From NCBI RefSeq assembly GCF_057098645.1, contig NZ_CM169472.1: DNA of 64,000 nt; one strand, given 5' to 3'. The notes beneath the pieces were generated by a model. The model was not told the DNA's origin, ran no database searches, and saw nothing but the letters and a program-made list of their open reading frames with translations. The position numbers and the translations under genes were made by a program. Shown here in pieces: positions 1,582-61,204 of this stretch; within the stretch, counting starts at the first letter, position 1, and each line of letters begins with the position of its first letter.

Positions 1582-2377
1582 AATCATTTTCTGGTTTGTT
1601 TGAAGTTTCATTTACAGGCTGGATCACATCCTTATTAAAATGGCGCGTTTGTTCGACTTTACCTTTTCTAGAAAGGCCTGCACCTTCTAAAATTGAATCG
1701 ATTTTATCGCCACCATTAGCTAAGAAATGCTTAAAATTTTCCGATGATAACATTTCCATTATAGGCGATGAATGGGTAGCTTCTTCAACAAATCTTAATG
1801 GCGGCTCCTCCAGTCGAGTAAGTGCATTACCAAATAACCTTTGGGTAAAGTCGCTATCAAGTTGGACAGCTTCTCTTCTATATCCCTCATAAGCTTTGGA
1901 TACTGAGGCCTTGAATTCATAATCCTCTGCCAATCTGAATCGCTGACCAATTTGTTTCGTTGCTAACCAAGCAAACCATAATGGTGCTCCAACACTTAAA
2001 ATGGAGAGTAAAAGTTGAATAGCTAACTTTATACCTGATGCGTCAGGGTTTGACAGATATGCTTCGAGAGCATGTAAACGCGTATAACCAACAGCAGCAC
2101 CTGCAACCAAAGCACCTATTAGTCCACATACCCACCAACGTATGCTCCGGTTTAATTTTTCTGCTTTATCTTGAAATGCCCCAGCCAAACCTTTTGAAGT
2201 AGTAGTTCTAAATGCCTCTTCACATTTATTAATATAACCCTGAGCTTCTTCACGGAGAGATTGTAAATAATCTTTTGCATCCTTGCTTGCATTCTGTTTC
2301 AGCGCCAAAATTTCTTGTCTGGCCTCATCTACGATTTTGGAGTTCTCTTCAGTCTCTTTAAGGGTAATGACTCCAAC

Positions 2378-2881
2378 TTATTGATAGTGTTTTATGTTCA
2401 GATAATGCCCGATGACTTTGTCATGCAGCTCCACCGATTTTGAGAACGACAGCGACTTCCGTCCCAGCCGTGCCAGGTGCTGCCTCAGATTCAGGTTATG
2501 CCGCTCAATTCGCTGCGTATATCGCTTGCTGATTACGTGCAGCTTTCCCTTCAGGCGGGATTCATACAGCGGCCAGCCATCCGTCATCCATATCACCACG
2601 TCAAAGGGTGACAGCAGGCTCATAAGACGCCCCAGCGTCGCCATAGTGCGTTCACCGAATACGTGCGCAACAACCGTCTTCCGGAGCCTGTCATACGCGT
2701 AAAACAGCCAGCGCTGGCGCGATTTAGCCCCGACGTATCCCCACTGTTCGTCCATTTCCGCGCAGACGATGACGTCACTGCCCGGCTGTATGCGCGAGGT
2801 TACCGACTGCGGCCTGAGTTTTTTAAATGGCGGAAAATCGTGTTGAGGCCAACGCCCATAATGCGGGCGGTTGCCCGGCAT
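2378..2881 (-). CDS. insB: IS1 InsB reading frame (expressed as InsAB' by frameshifting)
   Basis: 167-aa ORF overlapping the insA 3' end inside the IS1 boundaries. Confidence 0.85.
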
Positions 2882-3075
2882 CCAACGCCATTCATGGCCA
2901 TATCAATGATTTTCTGGTGCGTACCGGGTTGAGAAGCGGTGTAAGTGAACTGCAGTTGCCATGTTTTACGGCAGTGAGAGCAGAGATAGCGCTGATGTCC
3001 GGCGGTGCTTTTGCCGTTACGCACCACCCCGTCAGTAGCTGAACAGGAGGGACAGCTGATAGAAACAGAAGCCAC
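2800..3075 (-). CDS. insA: IS1 InsA
   Basis: 91-aa [25 protein letters not shown]..., recognised as IS1 InsA. Confidence 0.9.
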
Positions 3076-3840
3076 TGGAGCACCTCAAAAACACCATCAT
3101 ACACTAAATCAGTAAGTTGGCAGCATCACCTCTTTAAGCATGCCATTAATATTTCTGCAATGCTCAACTGCGCTATTGTAAACATTTTTAACTTCATCAT
3201 TTGTTTCACGAAGCATTTTTACTGTTGTCGGTAGATTCTCGGCTGCATCATATGCTTCATTTATAGTTTTAATTTTCTCTTCTATATTACCAGTTTCAGC
3301 TGCAATTGCAGATATACCTGAATTATATAATTCTAATCTGCGTAAAATTTGCTTTGGTAATAAATTTCTATCTTTCAGCCTCTCAAATGAAAAAAGGTCA
3401 TTAATCCTATGAGAGATATATAACATTGAAATAACATAAGATGGTATAGCGGTCTGTTGAACTGATGCGTTACCATTGTTTATATGATTAATATTTTGCT
3501 GAGCATGATCCAGAGTGTAAATGAGCGCATCAATTACTGCAATGTCATCTGAAGATGGTACAAATTCCTGCATCTGATTAATTCTATCAGATAACATTTT
3601 TGGTAGTTCTATCAGATCCTCTTTATGTAAAAAAGGAAATGTGTACGGCCCAAGGTTTATAAAATCTTCCACAGGGAATACAAGACCATTAAGTGTTGTA
3701 TGTAAATTATCTAGTTTCTCTTTTAATTCAGTTAGTTTTTCGTTCATTAAAAAAATCCTTTATGACGCTATAGAACTTCCAGAGTAATCCGATAAAGATA
3801 TCATAAGACAATATTTTGGTATAAACACTTATTGCGCGCG

Positions 3841-26795: not shown

Positions 26796-27686
26796 TCAGG
26801 CTGCCAGATCATCGTTTCCGATGGAAGCATAATAAGCTTTTTCTGCTTCTGCCGGGGGAGTATGGCCCAGCCTTTCCAGCAATCGTCGATTGTTATACCA
26901 GTCCACCCACGTGAGTGTGGCCAGTTCCACTTCTGCACGGTTTTTCCAGCTCTTACGGTGTATTACCTCCGCTTTGTAAAGACCATTGATGCTCTCCGCC
27001 ATCGCGTTGTCATACGAGTCACCTGTACTCCCTGTTGATGCCAGCAGTTTTGCTTCTTTTAGTCGCTCCGTATAGGCCAGTGATACATACTGAGAACCTT
27101 TATCACTGTGATGGACTGTGCCGGACGGCCGACGGGCCCACAACGCCTGCTCCAGTGCATCCAGCACGAATGTCGTTTCCATGGACGATGAGACCCGCCA
27201 CCCCACGATGTATCCGGCAAACACATCAATGATGAACGCCACATAGACGAAGCCCCGCCATGTGCTGACGTAAGTAAAATCAGCCACCCACAGCTGGTCA
27301 GGTCGTTCTGCCACGAACTGACGGTTTACGCGGTCGCCTGCGGCAACGGCTTTCCGGCTGATGGTCGTACGGACCTTTTTACCCCGGAGAACACCGGCAA
27401 GTCCCATAACTGCCATGAGACGTGCCACAGTGCATCTGGCCACTCTGATACCTTCCCGTAACAACTGACGCCAGACTTTACGCACACCGTATACCTGGTG
27501 ATTTTCATCGTATACGCGCTGTATCTCTTTCTTCAGCCAGTCATCGTGCTGCGCACGGGCACTGCGTTTATCCGGATGATGTCGCTGTTGCTGACAATGG
27601 TAATACGTTGACGGGGCAATATGCAGTTCGCTGCATAGCGGTCCGACCCCGTACTGCTCACGCAGCTTATCCAGCAGTGGCATCAT
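26796..27686 (-). CDS. IS629 OrfB (DDE transposase domain)
   Basis: 296 aa, [22 protein letters not shown].. Confidence 0.9.
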
Positions 27687-28009
27687 TTTTTCCAGAGGCG
27701 GTCGAACTCCGCCTTCGCAAAATAAGCGGAAGCCTGGCGAAGGATATCGTTACTGCGGCGCAGTTCACGATTTTCACGCTCCAGCTCTTTCAGACGCTGA
27801 CGTTCAGCGGTGGTGAGCCCGCCATCACCGCCCCCGGTATCCCGCTCATGCTGGCGAACCCAGACACGCAGAGTCTCCGGCGTACAGCCAATCTTTGGAG
27901 CAATGGAACAAATTGTCGCCCATTGTGAGTCATATTCATCCTGACTTTCCAGAACCATACGAATCGCCCGCTGACGGACTTCGGGGGAAAAACGAGTATT
28001 TTTAGTCAT
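27683..28009 (-). CDS. IS629 OrfA
   Basis: 108 aa, [22 protein letters not shown].. ATGA overlap with orfB. Confidence 0.9.
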
Positions 28010-40671: not shown

Positions 40672-40827
40672 TTACTTCTCAGATTCGTAGTCTACGAAGA
40701 CAGCGACCTCCGTCTGACCGGTTCGGATTCGCACCTCGCAGAGGTCTTTCCTCGTTACCAGTGCCGTCACTATGACGGTTAAACAGATGACGATCAGGGC
40801 GATTAACATCGCCTTTTGCTGCTTCAT
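40672..40827 (-). CDS. hok: Hok-family membrane toxin (type I TA)
   Basis: MKQQKAMLIALIVICLTVIVTALVTRKDLCEVRIRTGQTEVAVF.., near-identical to HokD/RelF. The sok antisense is expected at about 40830-40900 on the plus strand. Confidence 0.85.
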   Translation of the reverse strand: MKQQKAMLIALIVICLTVIVTALVTRKDLCEVRIRTGQTEVAVFVDYESEK

Positions 40828-41117
40828 AGCCTGCTTCTCCTTGCCTTTCGGCACGTAAGAGGCTAACCTACATGTGTTCAGCATGGATTGAGCCTCAGAT
40901 TAATGTTAAGCGTCTTGCAGGACGCGTAATGTTAACTGGGGCTTTTCTCTATCTGCCGTTGGTGTTCATGCCCGAGGCAGATAGCCTCAAGCACCCGCTG
41001 CAATTCTACTTAACTATCCTTTTCCCGCAAACCGTTTTTATCCCCAGCGGCAAATCGAATACACCACCAGCGCCACCGCCATCGCAATTCCTACCGTTGT
41101 GAATGCTTCAGGCCAGG

Positions 41118-48349: not shown

Positions 48350-49240
48350 TCAGGCTGCCAGATCATCGTTTCCGATGGAAGCATAATAAGCTTTTTCTGC
48401 TTCTGCCGGAGGAGTATGGCCCAGCCTTTCCAGCAATCGTCGATTGTTATACCAGTCCACCCACGTGAGTGTGGCCAGTTCCACTTCTGCACGGTTTTTC
48501 CAGCTCTTACGGTGTATTACCTCCGCTTTGTAAAGACCATTGATGCTCTCCGCCATCGCGTTGTCATACGAGTCGCCTGTACTTCCTGTTGATGCCAGTA
48601 ATCCGGCTTCCTTAAGCCGCTGTGTGTAGGCCAGCGATACATACTGAGAACCTTTATCACTGTGATGGACCGTGCCGGACGGTCGACGGGCCCATAACGC
48701 CTGCTCCAGTGCATCCAGCACGAATGTCGTCTCCATGGACGATGAGACCCGCCACCCCACAATGTATCCGGCAAACACATCAATGATGAACGCCACATAG
48801 ACGAAGCCCTGCCATGTGCTGACGTAAGTAAAATCAGCCACCCACAGCTGGTCAGGTCGTTCTGCCACGAACTGACGGTTTACGCGGTCGCCTGCGGCAA
48901 CGGCTTTCCGGCTGATGGTCGTACGGACCTTTTTACCCCGGAGAACACCGGCAAGTCCCATAACCGCCATGAGACGTGCCACAGTGCATCTGGCCACTCT
49001 GATACCTTCCCGTAACAACTGACGCCAGACTTTACGCACACCGTATACCTTGTGATTTTCATCGTATACGCGCTGTATCTCTTTCTTCAGCCAGTCATCG
49101 CGCTGCGCACGGGCACTGCGTTTATCCGGATGATGTCGCTGTTGCTGACAGTGGTAATACGTTGACGGGGCAATATGCAGTTCGCTGCATAGCGGTCCGA
49201 CCCCGTACTGCTCACGCAGCTTATCCAGCAGTGGCATCAT
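48350..49240 (-). CDS. IS629 OrfB
   Basis: 296 aa, a few substitutions relative to copy 1. Confidence 0.9.
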
Positions 49241-49563
49241 TTTTTCCAGAGGCGGTCGAACTCCGCCTTCGCAAAATAAGCGGAAGCCTGGCGAAGGATA
49301 TCGTTACTGCGGCGCAGTTCACGATTTTCACGCTCCAGCTCTTTCAGACGCTGACGTTCAGCGGTGGTGAGCCCTCCATCACCGCCCCCGGTATCCCGCT
49401 CATGCTGGCGAACCCAGACACGCAGAGTCTCCGGCGTACAGCCAATCTTTGGAGCAATGGAACAAATTGTCGCCCATTGTGAGTCATATTCGCCCTGACT
49501 TTCCAGAACCATACGGACTGCCCGTTGACGGACTTCAGGGGAAAAACGAGTATTTTTAGTCAT
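49237..49563 (-). CDS. IS629 OrfA
   Basis: 108 aa, a few substitutions relative to copy 1. Confidence 0.9.
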
Positions 49564-49647: not shown

Positions 49648-49706
49648 TTTTCTGGTGACGTTTGGCGGTATCAGTTTTACTCCGTGGCTGCTCTGCCGCC
49701 CTTTTT
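49648..49706 (+). ncRNA. dicF: DicF small RNA (ftsZ-targeting) with its terminator
   Basis: tttctggtgacgtttggcggtatcagttttactccgtggctgctctgccgccc+ttttt, one mismatch to the recalled K-12 DicF. Followed by dicB as in Qin. Confidence 0.8.
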
Positions 49707-55242: not shown

Positions 55243-55318
55243 TCCTCTGTAGTTCAGTCGGTAGAACGGCGGACTGTTAATCCGTATGTCACTGGTTCGA
55301 GTCCAGTCAGAGGAGCCA
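55243..55318 (+). tRNA. asnT: tRNA-Asn (anticodon GUU), asnT position
   Basis: tcctctgtagttcagtcggtagaacggcggactGTTaatccg..ggttcgagtcc..CCA. Confidence 0.9.
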
Positions 55319-55479
55319 AATTCCTGTTTTCATGCTTATCTGTACGTCTCTGTTTGTTTAGGATTCAGTAAGTTAGCATGAAAATCCTTCCCGGTGCGTA
55401 TCTGGTTTTATCTCCGCATCGGGATAATTTGGTGGTCAGATCTGGGGTCAGTTTGGTTCGATTCTGGAGTGACCCCCAA

Positions 55480-56742
55480 ATGTCTTTAAACGATTCTAAA
55501 ATCCGCAAGTTAAAATCTTCTTCCCGTCCGGTAAAACTCTCCGACTCTCACGGTCTGTATCTGCTCGTCAATCCGGGCGGTTCGCGCATCTGGTATCTCA
55601 AATATCGTTTCAACGGAAAAGAATCCAGGGTCAGTCTTGGCGCATATCCGCTGGTCTCACTGGCAGAAGCCAGGCAGCAGCGCGACGGTATCCGTAAGCT
55701 ACTGGCGCAGAATATCAACCCGGCGCAACAGCGCATGGCAGAGAAATCCGCCTGCTCCCCTGAAAAGTGCTTTAAAGCGGTGGCGCTGGCCTGGCACAAA
55801 ACCAACAAAAAATGGTCGGCTGATTATGCCGCCCGTATTCTCGCCAGTATGGAAAACCATATCTTCCCGGCGGTTGGTCACCTGCCCGTTGCTGCGCTTA
55901 AAACGCAGGATTTCACCGCACTGCTGCGGGTTATTGAGGATAAGGGCTTTCTGGAAGTCGCGTCCCGCACGCGACAGCAACTCAGCAACATCATGCGCTA
56001 TGCCGTTCAGCAGGGACTTACCGACAGTAACCCGGCGCAGCATCTGGAAGGCGTTGTCTCCTCCCCCGTAAAGAATCACTACCCCGCGTTACCGCTGGAG
56101 CGGTTGTCCGAACTGCTTGGCCGCATCGGTGACTATCAGCAGGGCCGGGAGTTAACCCGGCTGGCGGTGGTGCTGACACTGCACCTGTTCATCCGTTCCA
56201 GCGAACTGCGTTTCGCCCGCTGGAGCGAGATCGATTTCAGGCACAAAATCTGGACCATCCCCGCCACCCGCGAGGCCATCGACAAAGTTCGGTTTTCGGG
56301 GCGTGGCGCAAAAATGCGTACCCCGCATATCGTACCGCTCTCCCGCCAGGCGATTGCCCTTCTGAAACAGATACAGGAGCTTTCCGGCCATCTGGATCTG
56401 GTGTTTCCCGGCGATCATAATCCGTACAAGCCAATGAGCGAAAACACAACCAACCGGGCGCTGCGCCTGATGGGGTATGACACGAAAACTGAAATCTGCG
56501 GGCATGGACTCAAGGCAATGGCCTGTAGCGCCCTGGTGGAGTCGGACCTGTGGTCACGCGATACGGTGGAGCGGCAAATGAGCCACCAGGAGCGCAACAG
56601 CGTGCGGGCGGCATATGTGCATAAAGCAGAGCATCTGGAGGCCAGAAAGGCCATGATGCAGTGGTGGTCGGATTATCTGGATGTGTGCCGCGAGGGGTAT
56701 GTTGCGCCGTACATTTATGCCCGGCAGCATAAGGCAGCCTGA
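55480..56742 (+). CDS. P4-type tyrosine integrase of the asnT island
   Basis: MSLNDSKIRKLKSSSRPVKLSDSHGLYLLVNPGGSRIWYLKYRF.., a typical P4/HPI-like Int, 160 bp after the tRNA. Confidence 0.85.
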   Translation: MSLNDSKIRKLKSSSRPVKLSDSHGLYLLVNPGGSRIWYLKYRFNGKESRVSLGAYPLVSLAEARQQRDGIRKLLAQNINPAQQRMAEKSACSPEKCFKAVALAWHKTNKKWSADYAARILASMENHIFPAVGHLPVAALKTQDFTALLRVIEDKGFLEVASRTRQQLSNIMRYAVQQGLTDSNPAQHLEGVVSSPVKNHYPALPLERLSELLGRIGDYQQGRELTRLAVVLTLHLFIRSSELRFARWSEIDFRHKIWTIPATREAIDKVRFSGRGAKMRTPHIVPLSRQAIALLKQIQELSGHLDLVFPGDHNPYKPMSENTTNRALRLMGYDTKTEICGHGLKAMACSALVESDLWSRDTVERQMSHQERNSVRAAYVHKAEHLEARKAMMQWWSDYLDVCREGYVAPYIYARQHKAA

Positions 56743-56808: not shown

Positions 56809-56927
56809 GTATTGAGAGGTATTGTTGCTGTTTTTGTTATTATTAATTGGGAAGCACCGAAAATTATTCCAGTAGAATATTTGCAGGCGACTGCCTATTA
56901 ATAAATGCATTATTGATAGATAACTAC

Positions 56928-56957
56928 CTTCTGTGATTTGCCCGCAAATCACAGAAG
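56928..56957. repeat. Palindrome 1: 12-bp arms cttctgtgattt / aaatcacagaag, 6-nt spacer
   Basis: Read directly. Shares the core CTTCYGTGATT with palindrome 2. Confidence 0.8.
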
Positions 56958-57153
56958 ATGAAAACCTATCAATACGGGATATTTTCACGGAAATACCAAT
57001 TAATACTCCAGAATATCTCCTGACCATATACTCTGAAACCTGTAAGAACTGCATCAGATATTGAGAGACCAGATAGATGTAAGTCTGAAATTATTTTGTT
57101 TCCAATGATTTCAGGCGAAAAACCTATCAATACATCTGTTTTCAATAGGCAGC

Positions 57154-57189
57154 CACCTTCCGTGATTAACATGTTAATCACGGAAGGTG
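57154..57189. repeat. Palindrome 2: perfect 36-bp spacerless palindrome
   Basis: caccttccgtgattaacatgttaatcacggaaggtg equals its own reverse complement. Confidence 0.85.
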
Positions 57190-57512
57190 AAAAGCTTTCA
57201 ATAATCGATATTTCCACGGTATTACCACTTAATACATCCCAAAAAATGCGCCATAAAATACCGGACAATCTTTCCTGATACACATTATCACTGCACCAGC
57301 TATACAGAGACAAAATAATCTGCACCCGTCCTGGATAATCTGCTATCTGCGCCAGCGTCCCGCCGCTCTACCTGTTCAGGGCTGCGCCAGTTCCTGGCCC
57401 TTTAGTTTTTGGCCCTTTCAGGTCAGGCGCTGTTACCCTTATCGCCCCCTTAACCTTTATGACCCTTTCCCTTTCTGGCGCAACCAGTTTATTTGGAAAT
57501 GCTCCATGACAG

Positions 57513-57527
57513 TCTGCACCAGACTGT
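57513..57527. repeat. Inverted copy of the 15-mer acagtctggtgcaga
   Basis: tctgcaccagactgt is the reverse complement of 59304-59318. Lies within the near-palindrome acagtctg-cac-cagactgt. Confidence 0.75.
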
Positions 57528-58040
57528 ATTTTCACCACAGGATAACGATCACAAAGTGCAAAAAATAACATGAAGCACCGAAGATTCTTAATTCATATGA
57601 AGCAGGTTATTATGCCAAAAACCGTCGCAGCATTTTTATAAAATCATGAGGCATCCTGAGACCATATAATATATGTCACAGGATACGGAAAAACACAGAG
57701 AGAATTATTCAGATATAAGCCTGCACCAAAATTAATGTGATGCCCCGGTGAATTTACATTTTAAAATTTCCCCAGCCCTGTAGTATTGGTAAAAATGAAT
57801 GAAACACCTGTTATCAATTGGAATCGTTTCGAGTGATTACAGGGTAATCACTATAATATCCCGGCAAACTATATTGGTTAAGCAGGAGAATCTGATCTGT
57901 TGATATTTATTCGTCATGCTGTAACGATATTTTCACAATATAAACCCGTTCGCCCCCTGCGCCAGATCCGGAACATAGGGTACGATAAATCGCTGTCGTT
58001 ACACAGTAACCGCATTATTTTGCGCCATTCATGAACTCAG

Positions 58041-58924
58041 TCATTCCTCCTTCCAGCGGTAGCCGTACACCTGTTTCACCCAGCGACCGCGACCGTCGCC
58101 ATGACCCAGATCCGTCGCCGTCAGCGCCAGTGACTCCTTTTCGCTGAATCCCTGTTCCAGATAATGGCGGATCGCATCCTGCGCCCATGCATAACGCAGG
58201 GAGTGCGGGGAAAATTCGCCTGTCAGCCCCACTTTAACCGCCTGTCTGTGCCAGTGATTCATGGCTGTTTTAAGGTCGGGCTTGTCGATCAGCCTGCTAT
58301 TGCATTGTTCTGCTGCAAGTAACGCTTTTTCAAGGGCTTTCCTGACTGCGCCAGTATCCAGGACTGTCGTATGGCGGGGACGACCGCCCTTGGTGCCAAA
58401 CACCACTTTCAGCCGGTTTTCCCCGCGTTCAATGGTTTTCAGCCACGTTTTCAGCGACTGTGAACTCTGTACCGCCTCCTGCGAACGTAGCCCCATCAGC
58501 CGCGCAATCTCCAGCACTGCCGCCAGCCCTGCGTCCTGAGTGCGGGCTTTCTCCATCACCTGCTGGTAATGTTCCGGCGTGATGGCGCGGCGCGTGCCGT
58601 TGCGCGAAGCGCCTGACACCCCTAATGCCTTATTGGTCAGACGCGGATGCTCCACCACCTGCCTGCGTTCAGCCTATCTCAGCACGGTCCGCAACGCTGC
58701 CATTCCGTTTTGCAGCGTTCGTAAACCAATATCCTGCTCCAGCCGTTCCTCAATGTAGCATTCGATATGGCGAACCTTGATCTGCTGCACCCGCTGGATC
58801 TGGATATTCAGCGCCCGTAAATGTTCACTGAACCGTTTGTAATATGGATATGGTCATTCACCGTTTTGAAGCTGCCGCCCGCTTTCTTCGCCAGCGCCTT
58901 CATTTCACTGCTTAATTTACTCAT
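58041..58924 (-). pseudogene. Tyrosine recombinase (integrase-fold) gene with one frameshift and one in-frame TAG
   Basis: MSKLSSEMKALAKK.. then frame change near 58825-58840. TAG at 58674-58676. The downstream part keeps the catalytic ..GGRPR.. and HSLRYAWAQD ... VYGY motifs. Confidence 0.7.
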
Positions 58925-59253
58925 GAATCCCCTGCAACATAAACAAACAGTCTCCGGCGTGTGCTGTTTGGCTGCGCCAGAACGATACCTTCACGCCGGA
59001 GTGGCTGGTTGTTGAGGTTTAAGGAGTTTCAGGCTGTACGCGGTACAGACTGCCTGACGAAGCAGGGGTGTCTCCGGAGCATCGTGCCCCCCTCGGTATC
59101 GATCTTTTTCTCCTTTACTCTGAGCTGACAGCTGCCCCAAAGGGCATGTCAGACGGCGGAAATATGGCGCAGGCCAGGACTGGCGCGGCTTGCGGCGGTG
59201 AGTTGTGCGGCGTCACTTTGCCCTGTCGCTGGCGCGACCAAAGTGACGCCTTG

Positions 59254-59317
59254 TCTGGTGCAGGGGGGAAACGTTGCGCTTCTGGTGCAGTATTCAAAAA
59301 TTAACAGTCTGGTGCAG
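59254..59317. repeat. Three perfect TCTGGTGCAG direct repeats phased exactly 27 bp apart
   Basis: Copies start at 59254, 59281 and 59308. They lie 330-390 bp upstream of the recombinase pseudogene start. Confidence 0.85.
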
Positions 59318-59733
59318 ATTAACGGTCACGCGGCAGCAAAGCCTGCTGTCTTTGCAGGCCGCAGCCCGTCATGTAAAAGGCGCTGGTCATCAGCAAGGGA
59401 TAAGTAGGCCGGAGAAATTCCGGCAAAGGAAAGCCGTTCAGCCGGTGAAGGCCATTGCGGTAAAGCGATGACGATGGAGCTGTCCTTGTATATATGTACT
59501 TCGCCTCAAACACTTTCGCGTTCCGGTATTGCGGAGGTCGTACCGGTAGCAAGGGCTGGTCGTCCTGTTAAATCAGGGGCTTCTTGCAGACCATGAAGCC
59601 AAAGGGTGCCCGAAGGCATAGTGCAGGAGGGAGATTACACCGTTATTTCTGGCGCAGAAAGGGGAAATTCATTTTTCTGGAAAAAGGGTTTCCCCTTGAT
59701 TTTAACGTGTATTTGTGAACGTGAAATGCTGAG

Positions 59734-60006
59734 CTAACCTCTCAATGACCGGATAACAGGCCGTGGCTTTTGCGATGCCTGCCAGAGATCATATTCAGAC
59801 TGCATCCCCGCCCATAGCTCAGCGCGGGTATTCAGCAGCGCCGCCAGACGCAGCGCCATATCAGCCGTCACTGGCGCATGTCCATTGAGAATGCGGGATA
59901 ACCGGGAGCGGGAAATGTTCAGCGCAGAAGCTGCCTGCACAATACTTGTGCCGCCCAGATAATCACGAAGAACCGCTCCCGGATGATGCGGATTAAACAT
60001 GCGCAT
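59734..60006 (-). CDS. higA: HigA-type (Xre-family) antitoxin-like HTH protein
   Basis: MRMFNPHHPGAVLRDYLG..AASALNISRSRLSRILNGHAPVTADMALRLA.., typical of HigA/VapI. Confidence 0.7.
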   Translation of the reverse strand: MRMFNPHHPGAVLRDYLGGTSIVQAASALNISRSRLSRILNGHAPVTADMALRLAALLNTRAELWAGMQSEYDLWQASQKPRPVIRSLRG

Positions 60007-60156
60007 AAAAACGACTCCGGCTGTGACCTTTACCAGCAGTGGGATGGTATCCTGCCGCGCTTCGCTTGTCTTCTCCCGGCTTTCCGCCAGCAAAACGCTG
60101 GTGGAAAGCCGGGAGAGTCCGATTTTACTGTAACGGTGCTCTTGCGGGTTCTGTTA

Positions 60157-60869: not shown

Positions 60870-61204
60870 TGGACAATCTCCAGTATGTGGTTTTAAATCC
60901 ACCATCAGAGGTTCCAATCTCCTGGGTGGTGGACTGAGCGAGGTTGGAACTACCGATCATACTGGAACCGGCGCACTTTGCAGTGCCCTCACCCAGCCCA
61001 CCATTGAGGTACAGCCAAGCGCACGACACAAAAAATGTGTCGCCAGTATGAATAATCCGGGGTTCCAATCCCGACGCCTGATTTTGCAGACGCAGGCTAA
61101 GGATACTGTGATTAGCAATGAGTCACATGAGGGCATATGGATATCCCGGAGCAGACTTACCGGGGCCAGTACCTCGCCAGAAAGAGCGCCGTTCCTGTTA
61201 TTTA

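Follow-up and report, generated by a model that had tools for sequence, protein, structure and literature searches.

The DNA analyzed here is a 64,000-nucleotide stretch of contig NZ_CM169472.1 (NCBI RefSeq assembly GCF_057098645.1), referred to below as the window, which matches E. coli O145 chromosomes at 99.9–100% and carries a decayed gene for a tyrosine-recombinase-like protein set among short repeats. The locus is an island at tRNA-Asn, flanked by mtfA and yeeJ. The tRNA-Asn (GTT) gene (55243..55318, plus strand; found with ARAGORN) is the integration site and marks the attL side. Its last 15 nt, CAGTCAGAGGAGCCA, recur about 15 kb downstream in a near-identical genome (L001:25314), immediately before yeeJ, and the island was therefore taken to be about 15 kb long. 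A preliminary description had proposed that the 1806 bp between two inverted 15-mers at 57513–59318 form an invertible or mobile cassette whose only gene is the recombinase. That gene does lie there, but it is not the sole feature, since an EFASI RNA and a hairpin were found in the same segment.

The gene was located by tblastn with an intact allele and occupies 58041..58924 on the minus strand. It corresponds to a 294-amino-acid protein with a PF12834 N-terminal domain and a PF12835 catalytic domain, related to the MpsA/MOB_M proteins. Relative to the intact 294-amino-acid allele of strain ATCC 8739, WP_000041048.1, the window copy has a frameshift at about 58835–58838 and a TAG at 58674–58676 (codon 84). 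The RefSeq annotation of the same gene reads “frameshifted; internal stop”, and the decay reported in the preliminary description is thus borne out. The intact allele matches PF12835 (Integrase_1) with E = 3e-60 and PF12834 (Phage_int_SAM_2) with E = 4e-39, while its matches to PF00589 (E = 1.4e-4) and to the XerC model TIGR02224 (E = 6e-6) fall below the cut-offs. Residues R146, K178, H240, R243, H274 and Y286 are invariant in 12 homologues, and the intact protein has the catalytic set of the tyrosine recombinase superfamily (R, K, H-x-x-R, H/W and the Tyr nucleophile). More than 1300 homologues are found in Enterobacterales, often several per genome, in addition to 58 plasmid records. A sequence search of the PDB with the protein gave no match at E ≤ 0.01. 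An AlphaFold2 model built from a 16-sequence alignment was of poor quality, with a pLDDT of 55 and a pTM of 0.36; the order of secondary structure is compatible with a two-domain fold. The 294 amino acids hold only PF12834 and PF12835 and no arm-type DNA-binding domain, whereas the neighboring P4-type integrase has Arm-DNA-bind_3.

Upstream of the gene, the 10-mer TCTGGTGCAG occurs in exact copies at 59254–59263, 59281–59290 and 59308–59317 on the plus strand, with the 27-bp period that had been reported, and once on the minus strand at 57514–57523. No further exact copy is present in the 64-kb window. When one mismatch is allowed there are 16 matches, compared to 3.66 ± 1.97 in shuffled sequences (none of 100 shuffles reached 16), and the extra matches mostly cluster at 57049–59657. 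The 15-mer ACAGTCTGGTGCAGA lies at 59304–59318 (plus) and, as the exact reverse complement described previously, at 57513–57527 (minus). For this sequence 0.11 matches are expected at up to two mismatches, and none of 100 shuffles reached two. The left 15-mer sits inside a 19-nt palindrome at 57509–57527, ACAGTCTG-CAC-CAGACTGT. Note that the motif flanks (TCTG / CAGA) are self-complementary and that its orientation comes only from the central CAC/GTG. Because about 12 of the 15 bases belong to the family consensus (CTGCACCAGAC), the perfect 15-mer adds little to the 10-mer.

Read in the orientation of the gene (minus strand), the upstream array begins with a distal box (GGGCTGCGGCCTGC...GGCTTTGCTGCCGCGTGACCG, 59318..59403) that was defined by invariant columns in the cross-locus alignment. 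The outer edge of the module common to most E. coli copies falls here, as a homology boundary at about 59395–59403 in hundreds of genomes. The box is followed by an extra 27-bp unit (59291..59317), consisting of the third repeat (59308–59317) and a 17-nt spacer and holding most of the right 15-mer, and then by two conserved CTGCACCAGA repeats (59254..59290; copies at 59254–59263 and 59281–59290), which are spaced 27 bp from start to start and end 3–6 nt from the hairpin. Degenerate versions of it were found at 57291, 57347, 57382 and 57957 (plus) and at 59180, 59229, 59649 and 59871 (minus). One additional upstream copy (CTGCGCCAGA, 59647..59655, minus) is oriented like the array, and other loci likewise have copies this far upstream, between −450 and −700. 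On the other side of the gene, a repeat-pair search returned a further inverted copy (CCCCCTGCGCCAGA, 57947..57966, plus) that is 85% complementary over 20 nt to 59254–59273. A conserved block (57288..57530, plus) carries CTGCRCCAG copies at 57291, 57347, 57382 and 57514, all inverted relative to the upstream array and interspersed with CCCTTT repeats; the left 15-mer and the 19-nt palindrome lie within it.

Between the array and the gene lies an inverted-repeat hairpin, GGCGTCACTTTG-N18-CAAAGTGACGCC (59209..59250), with perfect 12-nt arms, which forms the dominant stem when the DNA is folded as a single strand and is a candidate for the core of an oriT-like site (oriT, origin of transfer). 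No alignment, from Escherichia to Xenorhabdus/Photorhabdus and a Pantoea plasmid, shows any change in its arms, even where the proteins are only about 47–53% identical, whereas the loop varies. Of 70 loci, 61 contain the sequence GCGTCACT at a distance of 340–400 nt upstream of the gene. In a copy at aspV, the hairpin has a longer arm variant and pairing is retained. Next to the gene is the EFASI RNA (Rfam RF02957; 58979..59107, minus), which scores 94.1 bits against a gathering score of 51.2 and lies on the gene's strand, 55–183 nt upstream of the start codon. The repeats and the hairpin are outside the Rfam model. EFASI was present just upstream of the gene, roughly 60–270 nt before the start, in all 15 diverse chromosomal loci examined (ranging from Escherichia to Xenorhabdus, Sodalis and Zophobihabitans) and in both plasmids. 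STAXI (RF01728) had no match at E ≤ 1 in the window between 56700 and 60500 and was found in five other loci (L036, L063, L067, L087, L088). In some loci of Brenneria and Sodalis (L040 and L056, at about 3320–3490), a radC RNA motif (RF01754) is situated upstream of the hairpin, where others have STAXI.

Alignment of 12 loci from nine genera gave two copies of CTGCACCAG(A), 27 bp apart. Of the 11 closely spaced pairs, 8 have a spacing of 27 bp and the other three one of 24–26 bp, and the gap between the proximal repeat and the hairpin is 6 nt in 15 loci. The third 27-bp unit is missing from 11 of the 12 aligned loci, which have two copies, and most E. coli matches are 26–27 bp shorter at this position. 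Its spacer resembles those of other genera and not the usual E. coli spacer. Strain MFDS1019527 has a degenerate three-unit array together with an intact gene, whose product is WP_000041050.1. Judged from these alignments, the conserved design has two copies, and the exactly phased array of three is an elaboration specific to a lineage.

The orientation of CTGCRCCAG was scored in 72 loci relative to the gene. Upstream of −250, 125 copies run with the gene and 7 against it; for the stretch that starts at −250, includes the gene and extends to +700, the numbers are 2 and 198, over a background of about 0.04 per kb. An unbiased screen of 8-mers returned the same motif as the top polar word. The motif is present where the protein is roughly 60% or more identical to that of E. 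coli and is replaced in Xenorhabdus/Photorhabdus, whose loci keep the hairpin, the TCTGACAC box and EFASI; it therefore varies with the protein clade. Within the gene, copies in one orientation number 96, compared to 32.5 ± 4.7 in synonymous-codon shuffles, an excess that is only a hint since the loci are related. The downstream block can be aligned between Escherichia, Phytobacter, Klebsiella, Tenebrionibacter and Entomohabitans, and the DNA from this block to the stop codon is not conserved. Of 23 loci whose integrase and tRNA genes are downstream of the gene, 21 have the block; of 11 with these genes upstream, none has it. A search for an inverted duplicate of the whole site, comparing upstream with downstream regions, gave matches at the level of the motif only. 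These data support the conclusion that the repeats are non-random and linked with the recombinase-like gene in many genera, and this much of the preliminary description holds. They look like protein-binding sites that have opposite orientations on the gene's two sides.

Three other explanations were rejected. The downstream block is not an integrase-associated element, because loci with the integrase gene upstream have no array near its 3′ end. The repeats are not arm sites of the P4-type integrase, as a distance of about 2–4 kb separates the arrays from the tRNA core and just a single copy is near the integrase gene. They are also unlikely to be coding sequence, given a cross-genus alignment with frame-breaking indels and conservation centered on the hairpin arms, although RefSeq places a small “hypothetical protein” over the repeats in some genomes.

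Based on homology and synteny, we lean toward reading the repeats as belonging to the cis-acting site, with 59209–59403 as the conserved candidate, of a decayed conjugative mobilization module, comprising an oriT and a relaxase of the MpsA/MOB_M type, on an integrative mobilizable island of about 15 kb at tRNA-Asn. For comparison, the mob region of SGI1 was retrieved using the published oriT sequence, with MpsA encoded at 2232–3197 (minus) of the retrieved locus (L086). SGI1 MpsA matches PF12835 above threshold (E = 4e-11) and aligns with the E. coli protein in BLASTP (E = 8e-7, 28% identity over 200 amino acids) over a region that takes in the box-I Arg and the GTKGGR(P/A)R hairpin. MpsA is an atypical relaxase of the tyrosine recombinase family that acts in transfer (PMC6414798), and PF12835 serves as the signature of MpsA-type “INT_DTR_like” relaxases (PMC10484663). 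The oriT of SGI1 is located about 300–430 bp upstream of mpsA, with the essential core of sgm-sRNA encoded between them on the same strand (PMC9299015). In the window, the repeats and hairpin are 285–393 bp upstream of the gene and EFASI lies between. An oriT upstream of the gene is likewise found for MobK and TcpM (PMC9299015), and MobK of pIGRK nicks an oriT that has inverted and direct repeats via its catalytic tyrosine (PMC8152469).

A 2026 preprint reports that MOB_M proteins are the commonest chromosomal relaxases in E. coli, Salmonella and Klebsiella, that 96% of them are near an integrase, linked to MPF_G systems or alone, and takes the intergenic sequence upstream of their genes as candidate oriT (10.64898/2026.01.13.699239). 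The preliminary description had known of no element with this layout. However, the MOB_M preprint, the PF12835 signature for MpsA and the Rfam EFASI entry were already on record, the last of which, in the part quoted in PMC12370729, places EFASI upstream of integrase genes. The kind of module has been recognized only recently, and the EFASI-linked subfamily would be a variant of it. No open reading frame for a separate small MpsB partner follows the gene, and the PF12834 domain is fused to the catalytic domain instead; the module is for this reason considered a variant and not SGI1-type.

A mechanism can be modeled on SGI1 (oriT, sgm-sRNA, mpsA) and on MobK of pIGRK. In the orientation of the gene, a functional module would present the distal box, two (here three) CTGCACCAGA repeats at 27 bp, the hairpin, EFASI and the PF12835 gene. 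The P4-type integrase would excise the island as a circle, and the PF12835 protein would bind the phased sites and nick near the hairpin using its catalytic tyrosine. The strand would then be passed on to a type IV secretion system belonging to a helper element, with the RNA encoded between site and gene acting as a required cofactor. Since the window gene is dead (frameshift and TAG), its site and RNA would be relics, at most usable with protein supplied in trans.

Several observations weigh against this assignment. The fused N-terminal core-binding-like domain and the full catalytic set are kept, which makes a true recombinase possible. Instead of working as DNA, the hairpin and boxes could function in RNA, forming the 5′ portion of a precursor of EFASI. 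A model based on oriT leaves the inverted downstream array and the intragenic copies in one orientation without explanation. Identity to MpsA is only 28%, and the hhalign probability is 54%. The Rfam EFASI model has no match in the SGI1 mob (sgm-sRNA) region, and oriT(SGI1) shares no sequence with the window site and has no match in E. coli genomes either; the parallel to SGI1 is accordingly one of analogy and not of homology between cis elements. Finally, a TraI-like relaxase is also encoded by certain MPF_G elements, SGI-4 among them (PMC6543542), and in these the PF12835 protein need not be the relaxase.

The proposal that the two 15-mers enclose a 1.8-kb invertible switch, or else a mobile cassette complete in itself with inverted repeats at its ends, is now very improbable and largely refuted. 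Inverted repeats do bound a segment with an adjacent recombinase-like gene: the 15-bp repeat is exact, further inverted motif copies surround the gene, and 21 of 23 loci with the window arrangement have flanking inverted arrays. To look for inversion, we used a synthetic junction query in which the left flank was joined to the inverted interior, and which can also catch inversion at neighboring motif copies. Matches were obtained in 425 E. coli genomes, many of which carry intact alleles of the gene, and in none did a single place cover at least 80% of the query. Neither a promoter nor a split gene or alternative coding end was found across the ends of the segment, and homology between islands spans 57008–59395, past both 15-mers. 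Copies on plasmids and copies with the integrase and tRNA genes upstream lack the downstream array yet keep the gene, EFASI and the hairpin, which argues against a cassette delimited by the repeats. The module does occur in both orientations relative to the integrase gene and tRNA-Asn, for example one in the window and the other in strain A3. Identity between these islands is only about 76% and their gene content differs, and as old lineages they do not represent a flip of the 1.8-kb segment. The single orientation across the genomes searched, an outcome that the preliminary description had itself named as refuting, shows no sign of a flip-flop switch, and the locus does not represent a novel type of invertible or mobile cassette.

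It is less far-fetched, though we still consider it unlikely, that a genuine site-specific recombinase acts on its own arrays, either resolving multimers of the excised or replicating island or helping in integration and excision, with the 10-mers as accessory or arm-like sites and the hairpin region as the crossover. Retention of all catalytic residues and of a core-binding-like N-terminal domain fits such an enzyme, as do the weak XerC match, the oppositely oriented arrays on the two sides of the gene and the occurrence of both module orientations among island lineages. The site also adjoins the gene, an arrangement known from plasmid resolution systems such as Rsd/crs and ResD/rfsF, where the site is beside the recombinase gene. 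However, no pair of inverted motifs 6–8 bp apart, as in dif, loxP or cer, recurs at a conserved position; the hairpin arms are 14–18 bp apart across loci, unlike known crossover sites; and the protein has no arm-binding domain. Moreover, no rearranged junction was seen among the 425 genomes, and the nearest characterized relative works in transfer and not in recombination (PMC6414798).

Less probable again is that the 10-mers are operators for the nearby HigA-like or helix-turn-helix factor, which would control a long leftward transcript giving EFASI and the recombinase-like mRNA. Every neighboring gene from isrK/C4 via HigA to the PF12835 gene has the minus orientation, and a single transcript could therefore run across the array, just as the primary transcript of SGI1 crosses its oriT, and the motif has short palindromic flanks. 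Even so, the array is kept with other neighbors (Rhs cargo in ATCC 8739, different helix-turn-helix genes in A3), and the motif varies with the recombinase clade. Its 4-bp half-sites around a 3-bp center are too close for a typical helix-turn-helix dimer. The oriT and relaxase module remains our preferred assignment.

For the window itself the message is modest, namely a module relic with a broken gene and no indication of an active switch. More tentatively, and by analogy, the orphan Rfam motifs EFASI and perhaps STAXI may be parts of a widespread relaxosome with tyrosine-recombinase-like relaxases, in which the RNA would be an obligatory cofactor (as is sgm-sRNA) and the polar CTGCRCCAG arrays would position the protein around a universally conserved hairpin at which nicking would take place. 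If this were true, the “second integrase” beside P4-type integrases in hundreds of islands of E. coli, Salmonella, Klebsiella, Citrobacter and Brenneria would be a relaxase with its own oriT and RNA cofactor. Many tRNA-linked islands of Enterobacterales that are regarded as “immobile” (carrying type VI secretion systems, Rhs or defense genes) would be mobilizable, or recently so, which would account for the spread of such islands at tRNA genes. The orphan EFASI RNA would gain a function, and the hairpin with its phased 10-mers would provide a defined site for studying a recombinase fold turned relaxase.

Plasmid copies of the module have STAXI motifs on both sides, a setting that speaks for a link to conjugation. 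The 106-kb Pantoea piersonii plasmid NZ_CP104761.1 (L088), which points the same way, is typed MPF_G and “non-mobilizable”, the latter since no relaxase was recognized. The order on this plasmid is STAXI, hairpin, EFASI, PF12835 gene and another STAXI; the module is followed by a gene for a zincin-like metallopeptidase, which we read as ArdC-like, and by a methylase gene. It is a natural candidate for examining the relaxase idea.

Related modules are present in about 570–590 of 5426 complete E. coli genomes, all of them chromosomal. In 34 of 60 loci scanned, a tRNA or tmRNA gene is no more than about 3.5 kb away, and the islands sit at tRNA-Asn, tRNA-Phe, tRNA-Gly, tmRNA and aspV, with an integrase gene adjoining in annotated examples. 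The type VI secretion island at aspV in E. coli GTEN_24 contains a second, truncated copy (L003, 5900–6060) with a different decay, in which a deletion has removed EFASI together with the gene's 5′ end and a longer variant hairpin, with inverted motif copies on either side, is joined directly to about codon 95 of the gene. In Citrobacter youngae (L039, L049), about 315 bp of the sequence upstream of the gene is duplicated in tandem, at roughly −60 to −700.

In the window, the island comprises, in order, the P4-type integrase gene, the decayed gene, the HigA-like and helix-turn-helix genes, the C4/isrK RNA pair (60922–61106) and remnants of a type VI secretion system. The integrase gene (55378..56742, plus; RefSeq start at about 55480) is apparently intact, encodes Arm-DNA-bind_3, Phage_int_M and Phage_integrase domains (Pfam) and is 1.3 kb from the PF12835 pseudogene; the annotation of the 99.9%-identical genome L001 lists it as an intact tyrosine-type recombinase/integrase. 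Between it and the conserved block, an AT-rich stretch (56840–57240) is dense in palindromes and short repeats, including a perfect 18+18 palindrome (57154–57189), 42-nt arms (56900–56985) and four AAAACCTATCAATAC-like copies. Other genera have different, likewise palindromic units at the equivalent place (TACAAAAAATTTTGGGGCCAAAATTTTTTGTA). The HigA-family antitoxin gene (59734–60093, minus) has no obvious HigB partner, and directly downstream of it is a 17-nt inverted repeat (59659–59697) that is also kept in strain A3. C4 antisense RNA (60922–61008), isrK (61030–61093) and the c4-a1b1 target (61054–61106) are all on the minus strand, in common with HigA, the helix-turn-helix gene, EFASI and the PF12835 gene. 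This group forms a P1/P4-style immunity RNA module that would head a possible long leftward transcript, and these RNAs were also found upstream of the recombinase-like gene's module in other genera. Elsewhere in the window, matches to two ALIL pseudoknots (IS3-family frameshift signals; 27612–27728 and 49166–49282), sok antitoxin RNA (40822–40996) and DicF (49650–49701) fit with prophage and insertion-sequence content to the left of tRNA-Ser.

Compared to invertible switches and shufflons (fimS/FimBE, hin, Rci/sfx), the locus is similar in that short inverted repeats surround a tyrosine recombinase gene. It differs in that a single orientation was seen in 425 genomes and in its multi-copy arrays, which extend over hundreds of bp. 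With respect to the RNA families, EFASI in the window precedes an “integrase” gene as in the family description. STAXI motifs are known neighbors of ssb, topoisomerase and antirestriction genes (PMC2864571); the window has none near the module, while other loci have STAXI or radC motifs upstream.

Further parallels are with mobilization systems. Like SGI1, the module combines a PF12835-family protein, a cis site about 300–400 bp upstream and, in the interval between the two, an RNA encoded on the gene's strand, all on an integrative island with a separate integrase (PMC6414798, PMC9299015). It differs in that SGI1 has a separate mpsB in place of the fused PF12834 domain, in that oriT(SGI1) is described as an array of inverted repeats and the window site carries phased direct repeats, and in its attachment site, which is trmE for SGI1 and a tRNA gene or ssrA for modules of the window type. 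Like members of MOB_M (MobK of pIGRK, TcpM of pCW3 and the chromosomal “iMOB”), the module has a recombinase-like protein, often annotated as “integrase”, encoded beside an island integrase. MobK and TcpM are without a core-binding domain (PMC9299015), whereas the window-type protein has a core-binding-like one.

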